A stretch of DNA of 64,000 bases from an uncultured Pseudomonadota bacterium (lineage in GTDB: Bacteria; Pseudomonadota; Alphaproteobacteria; Rs-D84). Positions 4,006-6,486 of this stretch are shown piece by piece. The notes beneath the pieces were generated by a model. That model saw only the letters and a program-made list of their open reading frames with translations, ran no database searches and had not been told where the DNA came from. The position numbers were made by a program, and so were the translations under genes. Position 1 is the first letter of the stretch, and each line of letters begins with the position of its first letter. The stretch spans positions 16,944 to 80,943 of the forward strand of contig CACXXP010000005.1 of assembly GCA_902771695.1 (NCBI GenBank), given 5' to 3'.

Positions 4006-6486
4006 TTATAATTCTATGGGCGGGAAGCAATCACCACCCGCATCCGGACAGCAATTAAATCCTTGTTCGCCCATGTCGGTATACGTTTCACCCGGACAGC
4101 ATCCATTTGCATCAGGGTTTGCGCCATCACCACATGTAATGGTGGATGAATCTTGGGCAGGGGCCGCGGCGGATTCTTTCTTTTCCTTTTTGAATGGATT
4201 TTTAATATTTCCGTCTTCGTCATATTCCAACCCAAGAACCTGAGTATTATATTCTTTGGACCCTTGGGGAGTATTGTTTTGGAATTGTTCTTTTTGGTTT
4301 TCATATACGGCTTTTTGCTTTGCATTATTTTTTGCTTCGTATGTACCAAACGAACGGCAATAAAAGTCAAGAGTAGTGAAACTGTATTTCTTACATTCTT
4401 CACTTTTGTATGACACTGGCGCTGCGCAAGAATCATCTTTGCATTCACAGCAACTATCTTTTAGAGACGCTTGCATCATTGAACGAACCTGGCCGATTAA
4501 TTCTTCTATATTTTGACTTTCTTGGAAATCTTTGCTGACTTCGCCACGTGATATCGGTGCAGGCGCATGAACGGCGCAATTACGACTATCGGTATTTGGA
4601 TCACCACATGTTATAACCAAATCAACCGGTGAGAATACGGTAATACGTGTTCCTGCCGCAATTGAAAACGGTGGGGTGGTATTGTCCATCATATCAACCA
4701 GTAATTTTGTTGCAACATTATTCCATGCGGTAATAATTTCGTTCTTGGCCAATTCAGATGAACGCACTGTTCCACTTTGTACAACGGTGTTATTATCCAA
4801 ATCAATTTGATTTACAAATGCATCAGATATTGGTGCAATCATATTTACCGCCGCCGGAACAATCGCCGTCAACATAGGCATAATAAATTGTTGCAGGTAA
4901 TCCGTGCTGCCGTGGCCGGGAACACCTTTACGTCCCTGGGAATCAGCCGAGAATGGATTTTTACCATTGTCAAATGCAAATTCAACACCATCTGGACGAA
5001 TAAACTGATACCATTCTATCTGCATACGACCAACAGCCTTATATGGCCCAGGTAAATCGCCAACAACACGGCCCAACATCAATGTGCCTGTTGGAATTAT
5101 AACAGTACGTCCATTATCAGAATAAACATTACGATCAACCGTTGCACGCACAGGTAATCCACTTTCCAGTAATTTGGCATCTGCTTGGACATCGGAAACA
5201 ATTGTGGCCGGAATTGGTTTATATTGACGCAATACAAATGTCCGGTCGTATGGTAATGTTGAATACACTGTATCACCGTTATCATACCCAGAAAATTCAT
5301 TTGTTTTTTTTCGGGGTGTTAAATTGACATGATATGCCTGGGCCCCCGCATCACCCGCATCAGCCGCGGATGCAATTTGTATTCCCAATTCTTCATCGGT
5401 CAGCTGGCGCGCACGCGCGGCAACGCCACGATTTGATTTTCCCCCACTTAATTGAGGCATACGTTCTTGGACTGTTAAACGGATATGTTCGGCGTCAGAA
5501 CCAATTTTACGCGATGGATTTTTTATATCCATGATATAACCTGTGTCGGCATTGTAAATACCGGTTGCGTTCTTGCAATCAACATCAGAAAACGGATGAT
5601 AATAATATGCACCGGCCTCTGGAGTTATCCATCCACTTTGGATACCGGCGGTATTATACCCTGGGAAAGAGAAATCAGAACAATTATTCCCAAATGGTGA
5701 ATAATATTTTTTTTCGATATCTTTTGCCTTGGCCATTGGTTGTGGAGCGGCAAAATTTATTGGTGGTGCAATATCATCAATATCTTCTTGGAAATCCAAA
5801 TCATCTGTGGGTTCATCTTCGTATTCCGTATCAAAATCATCCACAGGTTCATCATCCGCAGGTTCTGGAATCGGTGTGGGTTTTACAACAGGTTCTTCAT
5901 CCATCGGATCAATATCCAAATCTTGCCCCGATGCCGTAACGTGATGTATTTTCGGTGGTTCATGCGCACCAATCACCGCAGTTATTGCATTTTTTGTCTC
6001 AATTGGGTCTGGGCCAATTTCAAATGCCGTCCATGTAAGTGAAACCCCAACATGTGTCCGTTGAATAACATGTTTTGGCGCATAATCCAATGTTATAAGA
6101 CATGGCGTTGCTTCGGTGACAAATGTGTGTTCATTGGTGCACGTGGCCATTGCAGAAATACCGACATCTTCGTCTGGTTCACCTTCAACCTGGACAACAA
6201 CATTTGTGATTTGAACACGTGTATTTGCATACACTTGGATTTCAGCGCTACGTGTTTCATTAACAAGTGTGTTTGACCAATCAATTGGCGTATCAGGGTC
6301 AAACCGTAACGTTGGGGTTATTGGAATAACTTCTTCATCTTGGATAATCTTTTTATTCTTTTTGCTGCCAATCAACAGCAGTAATAGAATAATAACGATA
6401 ATCAGTGCCGCAAACATCAACACCCATAACACTGAACGTGGTGTAGATTTGCGAAAATCTGAAAAATGCTGACCAACTTTTCCCAT
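4006..6486 (-). CDS. virB10: VirB10/TrbI-family type IV secretion core protein with long N- and C-terminal extensions
   Basis: IPATIVSDV, VRATVDRNVYSDNGRTVIIPTGTLMLG, RMQIEWYQFIRPDG, ADSQGRKGVPG, IAAGTRITVF; single N-terminal TM; start placed at ATG 6486 (ORF extends to 6546). Confidence 0.85.
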   Translation of the reverse strand: MGKVGQHFSDFRKSTPRSVLWVLMFAALIIVIILLLLLIGSKKNKKIIQDEEVIPITPTLRFDPDTPIDWSNTLVNETRSAEIQVYANTRVQITNVVVQVEGEPDEDVGISAMATCTNEHTFVTEATPCLITLDYAPKHVIQRTHVGVSLTWTAFEIGPDPIETKNAITAVIGAHEPPKIHHVTASGQDLDIDPMDEEPVVKPTPIPEPADDEPVDDFDTEYEDEPTDDLDFQEDIDDIAPPINFAAPQPMAKAKDIEKKYYSPFGNNCSDFSFPGYNTAGIQSGWITPEAGAYYYHPFSDVDCKNATGIYNADTGYIMDIKNPSRKIGSDAEHIRLTVQERMPQLSGGKSNRGVAARARQLTDEELGIQIASAADAGDAGAQAYHVNLTPRKKTNEFSGYDNGDTVYSTLPYDRTFVLRQYKPIPATIVSDVQADAKLLESGLPVRATVDRNVYSDNGRTVIIPTGTLMLGRVVGDLPGPYKAVGRMQIEWYQFIRPDGVEFAFDNGKNPFSADSQGRKGVPGHGSTDYLQQFIMPMLTAIVPAAVNMIAPISDAFVNQIDLDNNTVVQSGTVRSSELAKNEIITAWNNVATKLLVDMMDNTTPPFSIAAGTRITVFSPVDLVITCGDPNTDSRNCAVHAPAPISRGEVSKDFQESQNIEELIGQVRSMMQASLKDSCCECKDDSCAAPVSYKSEECKKYSFTTLDFYCRSFGTYEAKNNAKQKAVYENQKEQFQNNTPQGSKEYNTQVLGLEYDEDGNIKNPFKKEKKESAAAPAQDSSTITCGDGANPDANGCCPGETYTDMGEQGFNCCPDAGGDCFPPIEL

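Follow-up and report, generated by a model that had tools for sequence, protein, structure and literature searches.

An expanded VirB10 with a cysteine-rich tail at a type IV secretion locus of Rs-D84 Alphaproteobacteria

The stretch of DNA analysed here, hereafter the window, comprises 64 kb of contig CACXXP010000005.1 from an uncultured alphaproteobacterium of the Rs-D84 lineage and encodes, contiguously and on its minus strand, homologues of proteins of type IV secretion systems (T4SSs), namely VirB8, VirB9 and VirB10. The last of these is our subject. In agreement with a preliminary description of the sequence, it is a VirB10/TrbI protein of about twice the canonical length, and its gene is adjoined by virB9 and virB8. 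In VirB10, it is the C-terminal barrel that is considered the conserved heart of all T4SSs, and to our knowledge the enlargements recorded in this family lie either N-terminal to the barrel, as in CagY and DotG, or in the antenna, as in Rickettsiales. What sets this locus apart is the combination of a lineage-wide immunoglobulin (Ig)-like domain in a region that is normally disordered, a cysteine-rich extension of about 200 residues past the barrel, and a VirB9 with a SPOR-like end. Together they illustrate, in nature, how a core complex is elaborated through accretion of domains on its core subunits instead of through extra subunits.

A virB10-like gene at a conserved chromosomal locus

The protein is a genuine core subunit of the VirB10 family, an "expanded" VirB10. 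Its minus-strand open reading frame (ORF) spans 4006..6546 and, read from the ATG at 6486, encodes 826 aa; 48 homologues align from the encoded methionine, and an alternative GTG start further upstream would overlap the end of virB9. The motifs singled out in the preliminary description are all found in this protein: ATCT...TPCLITLDYAP at residues 114-137 (residues 113-137 read MATCTNEHTFVTEATPCLITLDYAP), TRITVFSPVDL at residues 613-623, and, within the tail, the paired-cysteine strings SCCEC (678-682), GCCPG (795-799) and NCCPD (811-815). The Pfam TrbI family PF03743 matches residues 420-620 above its gathering threshold (E 4.9e-16, 59.6 bits against a cut-off of 35) and is matched by 48 of 48 relatives. 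Among NCBIfam models, the T4SS_VirB10 equivalog domain NF038091 scores 63.2 bits, below its curated cut-off of 220, and the second-best model, Helicobacter pylori ComB10, scores 48 bits against a cut-off of 300. By these sequence scores, the protein is a divergent member of the superfamily and no equivalog of the Agrobacterium-type protein. Its topology is bitopic, with a hydrophobic segment at residues 19-40 that follows R12, K13 and R17 and, on the far side of the membrane, a region rich in proline, aspartate and glutamate at residues 181-262.

This architecture is widespread. A search of 5.8 billion proteins returned 878 homologues, the best 120 of which are nearly all 790-855 aa long and align over the whole query down to 47% identity. 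Relatives are encoded by 276 stretches among GTDB contigs sampled at one genome per species, and they come from uncultured Alphaproteobacteria and Candidatus Enterousia of the rumen or gut of cattle, buffalo, goat, sheep, deer, yak, chicken, horse and humans. A near-identical gene is present in 20 independent sequencing runs from 13 studies, the labelled runs being bovine or other gut metagenomes. The preliminary description had allowed that relatives might prove to lack the tail, which would have suggested a lost stop codon or a misassembly, but relatives of about 800 aa keep it. Candidatus (Ca.) Enterousia, a member of the uncultured order Rs-D84, has genomes of <1 Mbp and is without a tricarboxylic acid cycle and a respiratory chain (PMC12306168).

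The surroundings of the gene are conserved as well. The contiguous order virB8-virB9-virB10 is kept in the 80 loci examined, and the full arrangement, in which rplA-rplK-nusG on the opposite strand are followed by virB8-virB9-virB10-orf114-orf111 and then by yidC-lspA, again on the opposite strand, was seen in 49 of them; the rest are partial, either through contig ends or because one or two genes are missing. Because gene order is kept in 80 loci, we consider the locus chromosomal and vertically inherited, and no conjugative element. A plasmid or conjugative origin is ruled out by the nusG-yidC synteny and by the extent of the plasmid matches, as 426 plasmid records match residues ~391-716 only, none spans 80% of the protein, and no plasmid VirB10 covers its extensions. 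In four gut RNA libraries, there are contigs over parts of virB8, virB9 and virB10, among them the stretch that encodes the tail (4034-4875) and the junction of virB9 with virB10. The features of the locus are collected in Table 1.

Table 1. Features of the virB8-virB9-virB10 locus, parts of the VirB10-like protein and one further gene of the window. pLDDT, predicted local distance difference test; AF2, AlphaFold2; res, residues
Feature	Position	Strand	Basis
virB10-like gene, 826 aa + stop	4006..6486	-	homologues align from its ATG
Cytoplasmic N-terminus and single transmembrane helix (res 1-41), basic residues preceding the helix (N-in)	6364..6486	-	sequence; AF2 helix 17-39
Ig-like (ASH/PapD-like) beta-sandwich domain, res 58-178; C116/C129 invariant	5953..6315	-	pLDDT ~90; Foldseek
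Acidic Pro/Asp/Glu-rich linker (res 181-262)	5701..5946	-	composition; pLDDT <50
Small beta-rich domain (res 265-341), invariant C269/C304	5464..5694	-	pLDDT 84-89; 65-75% conserved
TrbI/VirB10 beta-barrel domain (res 412-625)	4612..5253	-	PF03743; NF038091 domain match; PDB matches
Antenna-like two-helix segment (res 531-600), ~15-aa loop, canonical size	4687..4896	-	DSSP helices 531-561, 577-600
C-terminal tail (res 626-826), 14 Cys; res 626-770 VirB10-specific	4009..4611	-	sequence, conservation, profile search
Terminal six-cysteine module (res 783-826), C-x10-CC-x14-CC-x6-C...FPPI	4009..4140	-	87% conserved; also in non-T4SS envelope proteins
virB9-like, 523 aa: CagX/VirB9 domain, Met/Gly/Pro/Asn-rich low-complexity linker, SPOR-like C-terminus	6512..8083	-	Pfam
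SPOR-like end of VirB9	about 6515..6796	-	marginal Pfam match; conservation
virB8-like, 218 aa	8114..8770	-	Pfam VirB8, E 1.4e-11
orf114, conserved downstream partner, family-less	3356..3700	-	Pfam/NCBIfam; synteny
orf111, conserved downstream partner, family-less	3001..3336	-	Pfam/NCBIfam; synteny
Signal-peptide thioredoxin/glutaredoxin-fold protein, CPHC motif (DsbA active-site motif), acidic linker, C-terminal transmembrane anchor	50656..51291	+	

Predicted periplasmic domains on both sides of the barrel

To place the additional sequence relative to the barrel, a full-length AlphaFold2 monomer model was built from the 48-sequence alignment, and conservation was scored on the same relatives. 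The barrel is 80-96% conserved, and the sequence matches of the family profile in the PDB, to CagY, ComB10, Xanthomonas citri VirB10 and TrwE, are confined to it. The two helices at the antenna position were modelled at pLDDT 40-60; the loop between them has only 15 aa, and no expanded antenna of the Rickettsiales type is seen in the model. Between membrane and barrel, the acidic linker has low conservation, many gaps, a variable length and predicted disorder, and a second linker (residues 342-404) is modelled at low confidence. The small domain that lies between these linkers returned nothing credible in the per-segment Pfam and NCBIfam search (E up to 10 or 1).

For the folded domain nearest to the inner membrane, sequence bears out the structural matches only at scores under the family cut-offs and in part of the relatives. 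In a Foldseek search of the full model against the PDB, the top match was the ASH/PapD-like domain of CEP192 (6fvi, E 7e-5, target-normalised TM-score 0.52), with further matches to the PapD-like domain of HYDIN (2ys4) and the ASH domain of OCRL (3qbt), and N-terminal sandwiches of GH123 enzymes and Siglec-like adhesin domains were also among the matches. The confidently modelled domain is thus a superposable beta sandwich with the seven to eight strands of the ASH/PapD-like type, and its conserved cysteine pair is set in the motif TCT...PC.I.L.Y.P. At the level of sequence, the family thresholds are those of PF22073 (35.5 bits), PF15780 and NF012200 (45 bits). Matches below threshold were obtained with the Ig domains of relatives, for Cep192_D4 in 6 of 48, for ASH in 4 of 48 and for choice_anch_D in three of four scanned relatives (16-26 bits against a cut-off of 45), the best scores being 25.6 bits (Cep192_D4) and 25.8 bits (choice_anch_D); the domain of the 826-aa protein itself matched none of the three in the Pfam and NCBIfam scans. 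Of the earlier proposal that the N-terminal insert is an ASH/choice-of-anchor-D Ig fold, therefore, the fold stands and family membership by sequence does not; the likeness is a resemblance of fold. Our literature search turned up no VirB10 described as having a folded Ig domain in its N-terminal periplasmic part.

The most extensive addition follows the barrel. From the offsets in alignments to solved structures, CagY continues for 116 residues past the aligned barrel segment, X. citri VirB10 for 98 and TrwE for 102, compared to 279-314 in the protein described here, which gives the 826-aa protein a C-terminal excess of 163-212 residues over these three. Canonical VirB10 proteins, at ~380-410 aa, end ~100 residues past the aligned barrel, and this one runs on for ~280-315. 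The tail proper, 201 aa with 14 cysteines, has a cysteine content of 6.9% as against 1.8% across the proteins of the window. It matched no Pfam or NCBIfam family in the per-segment search and no PDB sequence, and a tail-only AlphaFold model compared with the PDB by Foldseek gave no fold match (best E 5.7). In that model, a helix-hairpin-helix at ~673-713 (pLDDT 74-82) and a terminal knot of two hairpins at ~783-826 (pLDDT 78-87) are parted by a tether rich in lysine, glutamate, alanine and proline (residues 765-782, pLDDT <50). No membrane-crossing segment is predicted in the tail. By topology, it would be an appendage of the outer-membrane core complex. We found no published description of a conserved cysteine-rich extension of ~200 aa past the VirB10 barrel, and neither this feature nor a VirB10 with a folded Ig domain is represented by a family model or a solved structure.

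All 18 cysteines of the protein, four in the N-terminal half (116, 129, 269 and 304) and 14 between residues 627 and 820, lie on the periplasmic side of the membrane helix in the predicted topology. Those at 116, 129, 269, 304, 627, 637, 710, 785, 796, 797, 812, 813 and 820 are invariant in the 48 relatives and C680 is kept in 94% of them; ten of the 14 tail cysteines (C680 and the nine invariant ones from 627 onwards) are accordingly invariant or nearly so, a pattern far beyond chance. The number of tail cysteines is 10, 12 or 14 and never odd, both in the 48 aligned relatives (48 of 48) and in non-redundant tails (70 of 70). The changes fall in one variable stretch, which has one cysteine in 31 sequences, three in six and five in eleven; the three-cysteine sequences add 679 and 698 or an equivalent pair, and the five-cysteine sequences add 682 and 687 as well. 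Extracytoplasmic location and an even, pairwise-changing cysteine count agree with the proposed reading of the terminal module (residues 783-826) as a disulfide-rich periplasmic mini-domain. Given that the counts are even and the gains pairwise, periplasmic disulfides are the best reading of these residues, with metal binding as the main rival, and the 18 cysteines most likely form nine disulfides. For the tail we propose the pairs 627-637 and 680-710 and three pairs within the terminal module, with 679-698 and 682-687 as optional pairs.

A terminal six-cysteine module and its proposed role

To find where else the tail occurs, its profile was searched against 1.84 billion representative proteins, which yielded 264 matches. 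Among these, the complete tail is restricted to VirB10-type proteins and fragments. By contrast, its last ~45-50 residues, which form the terminal module, also end many other proteins, and the module is present alone in 120 of the 150 best clusters. Its other carriers, for which no Pfam or NCBIfam match was found, are of three types: signal-peptide proteins of ~180-270 aa with two or three tandem modules, bitopic membrane proteins of ~680-850 aa in which a long, TonB/TolA-like linker rich in proline, glutamate and valine precedes the module, and proteins of ~80 aa that consist of a transmembrane anchor and the module. In most of them, the module stands at the extreme C-terminus and ends in an invariant CFPPI, with internal tandem copies in P0140 and P0149. 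Every carrier has a transmembrane helix or signal peptide upstream, which places the module on the predicted periplasmic side, and in conservation the module is on a par with the barrel. Within the window, no copy was found beyond that of VirB10. Several of these organisms' envelope proteins are marked by this small domain family, which has no counterpart in Pfam, NCBIfam or the PDB.

The neighbours of the carrier genes are of other kinds. Carriers of ~700 aa are encoded beside gcrA, the gene of one tandem-module protein comes after an ABC-transporter gene, and the gene of the ~80-aa carrier lies directly 3' of an LppC/LpoA-like lipoprotein gene, at a gap of 3-20 bp and in a conserved housekeeping context, an adjacency that hints at a tie of the small protein to the peptidoglycan machinery. 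The idea that module proteins are T4SS accessory subunits encoded beside vir genes finds no support in these neighbours. Since the module is spread across envelope proteins that are not part of a T4SS, it is a lineage-wide, predicted periplasmic domain taken up by VirB10, and no invention of the T4SS. The preliminary description had presented the tail as a new appendage of the core complex. That it is without a described family, matching nothing in Pfam, NCBIfam or the PDB, is borne out, and relatives retain it, but its most conserved part is not specific to T4SSs. Three further observations concern individual carriers. In the ~700-aa bitopic proteins represented by P0171 (L081 8653-10812), which match no described family and are encoded beside gcrA, a conserved cytoplasmic domain at the N-terminus precedes a coiled coil and a transmembrane helix, and a long periplasmic Pro/Glu/Val-rich linker runs on to the module in a TonB/TolA-like layout. 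The ~80-aa anchor-plus-module ORFs at L083 10001-10246 and L086 10001-10240 lie about 4 kb from a ComEC-like competence gene. P0133 (382 aa) couples an unrelated N-terminal region with the VirB10 tail's distal half and the module, and it may be a paralogue or an assembly chimera.

On balance, the explanation we find best, and consider rather probable, is that the gene encodes a genuine VirB10 of a chromosomal, vertically inherited virB8-virB9-virB10 T4SS locus in Ca. Enterousia-like Alphaproteobacteria of gut and rumen, a protein of canonical design with three lineage-specific periplasmic additions, the terminal module of which docks or braces the core complex. The canonical design would comprise the short cytoplasmic N-terminus, a single inner-membrane helix, a flexible acidic and proline-rich linker, the TrbI barrel and an antenna of normal size, and the additions would be the ASH/PapD-like Ig domain by the inner membrane, the two-cysteine beta domain before the barrel and the ~200-aa tail after its last strand, all stabilised by the nine putative disulfides. 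The tail, one per VirB10 subunit, would emerge from the barrel's last strand beneath the outer membrane and hang into the periplasm, where the terminal module, held out past the flexible tether, could bind a partner common to the other module-bearing envelope proteins. Such binding, alongside the SPOR-like domain of VirB9, would brace or dock the core complex. SPOR-like domains are of a peptidoglycan-binding type. On VirB9, PF05036 passes marginally, at 21.6 bits against a cut-off of 21 (E 2.8e-4) and over the last 35 profile positions only, and the C-terminal 95 aa have a median identity of 82% in 79 loci. A chimera of X. citri VirB10 with msfGFP is reported in a review to be functional (PMC6536674), which suggests that one more folded domain can be tolerated by the core complex; a C-terminal position of the GFP, and with it tolerance of a bulky C-terminal addition, is read from the chimera's name only.

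Several observations weigh against this explanation. The tail models are only moderate, with a pLDDT of 62-63 overall and 74-87 in the two sub-modules, and the TrbI core is poorly modelled as a monomer (pLDDT 30-70). Module-bearing genes do not adjoin T4SS genes, and no further T4SS gene (virB2-6, virB11 or virD4) was found in the 64-kb window. In addition, the contigs from RNA libraries may contain DNA, making them weak evidence of expression.

A more far-reaching proposal, which we offer as speculation and hold to be doubtful, is that the six-cysteine module represents an undescribed envelope-docking or cross-linking family of Rs-D84 Alphaproteobacteria that ties the T4SS core complex, together with the TonB/TolA-like bitopic proteins, the LpoA-linked small proteins and the secreted tandem-module proteins, to one envelope partner or lattice. 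If this were true, the VirB10 tail would be a built-in substitute for accessory core-complex subunits, and tail and VirB9-SPOR would together define a "self-anchored" class of expanded T4SS in reduced-genome gut bacteria.

Among the alternatives, the first is that the cysteines bind metal (zinc, copper or an iron-sulfur cluster) and form no disulfides, such that the module would be a metal-binding or redox-sensing domain. The high cysteine density with its vicinal pairs fits this reading, as does the label "uncharacterized Zn-finger protein" given by one source to the small module-only protein P0142, and an anaerobic gut host without a respiratory chain (PMC12306168) might limit oxidative folding. 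Nonetheless, the label is an automatic name, the module contains no CxxC or CxxH knuckles, every copy is located periplasmically with respect to a transmembrane helix or signal peptide, cysteine numbers shift only pairwise from 10 to 12 to 14, and the window encodes a candidate periplasmic disulfide oxidoreductase, the CPHC protein of Table 1. We therefore judge metal binding to be unlikely.

Instead of a non-covalent docking head, the module could also be a signal for sorting or processing, or a handle for covalent cross-linking that ties VirB10 and other envelope proteins into a disulfide-linked lattice. The chlamydial outer membrane complex, which is disulfide-cross-linked, offers a likeness, and the window encodes many cysteine-rich signal-peptide proteins along with a Protochlamydia-type outer-membrane protein; the position of the module at the extreme C-terminus of most carriers, with its invariant CFPPI end, points the same way. 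Against this, the internal copies in P0140 and P0149 indicate that the module is not strictly terminal, and the even number of cysteines in every carrier favours pairing within the domain, leaving a sorting or cross-linking function quite unlikely in our estimation.

Display of the tail or module at the cell surface, as an adhesin or a contact sensor for a target cell in the manner of the variable surface parts of Helicobacter CagY, would suit a lineage with reduced genomes that probably depends on partner organisms; Ig-like and cysteine-rich modules are moreover common among adhesins, and Siglec-like adhesins appear among the fold matches of the Ig domain. However, the tail begins periplasmically, past the barrel's final strand, and has no predicted membrane-crossing segment, the module is 87% conserved and not diversifying as surface-exposed parts usually do, and the ~80-aa carriers hold it on inner-membrane anchors by linkers too short to reach the surface, all of which makes surface display very unlikely. 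Finally, the idea that the extension is an artefact of misassembly, gene fusion or loss of a stop codon in this contig can be dismissed. The only oddity is P0133 with its unrelated N-terminus on a distal tail. Hundreds of independent assemblies, at identities down to 44-47%, carry the same ORF of ~800 aa without interruption, the near-identical gene is present in the 20 independent runs, and the tail end is conserved as strongly as the barrel.

Known systems and neighbouring genes

The preferred reading of an expanded VirB10 with a docking tail can be set against known systems. With the canonical VirB10/TrbI proteins (Agrobacterium tumefaciens VirB10, pKM101 TraF, R388 TrwE and X. citri VirB10), the protein shares its bitopic topology, proline-rich linker, TrbI barrel, a predicted two-helix antenna of normal size and a gene that adjoins virB8 and virB9. 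The N-terminal periplasmic region of canonical VirB10 is described as disordered (PMC6536674), whereas here it holds two folded domains with paired cysteines. Variability of the VirB10 N-terminus is itself well known (PMC6536674), and expanded T4SSs, namely Cag, Dot/Icm and F, have been described (PMC9371333).

H. pylori CagY, which tops the PDB sequence matches of the barrel, is likewise an enlarged VirB10 homologue with extra modules, and its repeats contain cysteines. Its additions are repeats N-terminal to the barrel, in contrast to the protein described here, in which the main novelty is C-terminal and non-repetitive and is joined by an Ig domain. ComB10 of the same species, which matches the barrel in the PDB, is short and has neither Ig domain nor tail, although the block of virB8, virB9 and virB10 without adjacent virB11 or virD4 resembles the comB8-comB10 gene order. 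Outside secretion systems, the ASH, PapD-like and choice-of-anchor-D domains (CEP192, HYDIN, OCRL; NF012200) have the beta-sandwich fold in common with the N-terminal domain, with sequence scores that stay below threshold and occur in some relatives only.

Parallels are also offered by the RvhB10 proteins of Rickettsiales (Wolbachia, Rickettsia and Orientia), which are alike in being alphaproteobacterial, chromosomal and vertically inherited, in residing in reduced genomes and in the virB8-virB9-virB10 order. The RvhB10 antenna is expanded to ~127 residues compared to an average of ~57 in other Proteobacteria (bioRxiv 10.1101/2025.08.29.673095); the protein described here is predicted to keep a canonical antenna and carries its additions elsewhere. 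The loci differ too, as neither virB11 nor virD4 follows virB10 here, and the site that these two genes would occupy in Rickettsiales-type loci is taken by orf114 and orf111. Both of these ORFs are present in most loci (about 67 of 80), and neither product has an obvious signal peptide. A T4SS is not mentioned in the searchable published genome descriptions of Ca. Enterousia (Rs-D84). With genomes of <1 Mbp, these bacteria probably depend on other cells, and small genomes together with such dependence make the T4SS a candidate for partner interaction.

Elsewhere in the window, several more signal-peptide proteins have a cysteine content of 4-9%. A plus-strand cluster comprises ORFs at 22198..23367 (389 aa, 15 Cys), 25780..29154 (1124 aa, 50 Cys), 29132..33013 (1293 aa, 59 Cys) and 33397..34350 (317 aa, 29 Cys, 9.1%), the products of which mostly have a signal-peptide-like N-terminus, match no Pfam family and are possibly disulfide-rich surface or envelope proteins. 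Also on the plus strand, 53227..54813 and 54846..55838 encode adjacent signal-peptide proteins with weak matches to trypsin-like peptidases, the first of them with 20 cysteines, and the 528-aa product of 39261..40847 matches the Pfam family Pom (Protochlamydia outer membrane protein, E 3.5e-11), a porin type that is unusual in an alphaproteobacterium.

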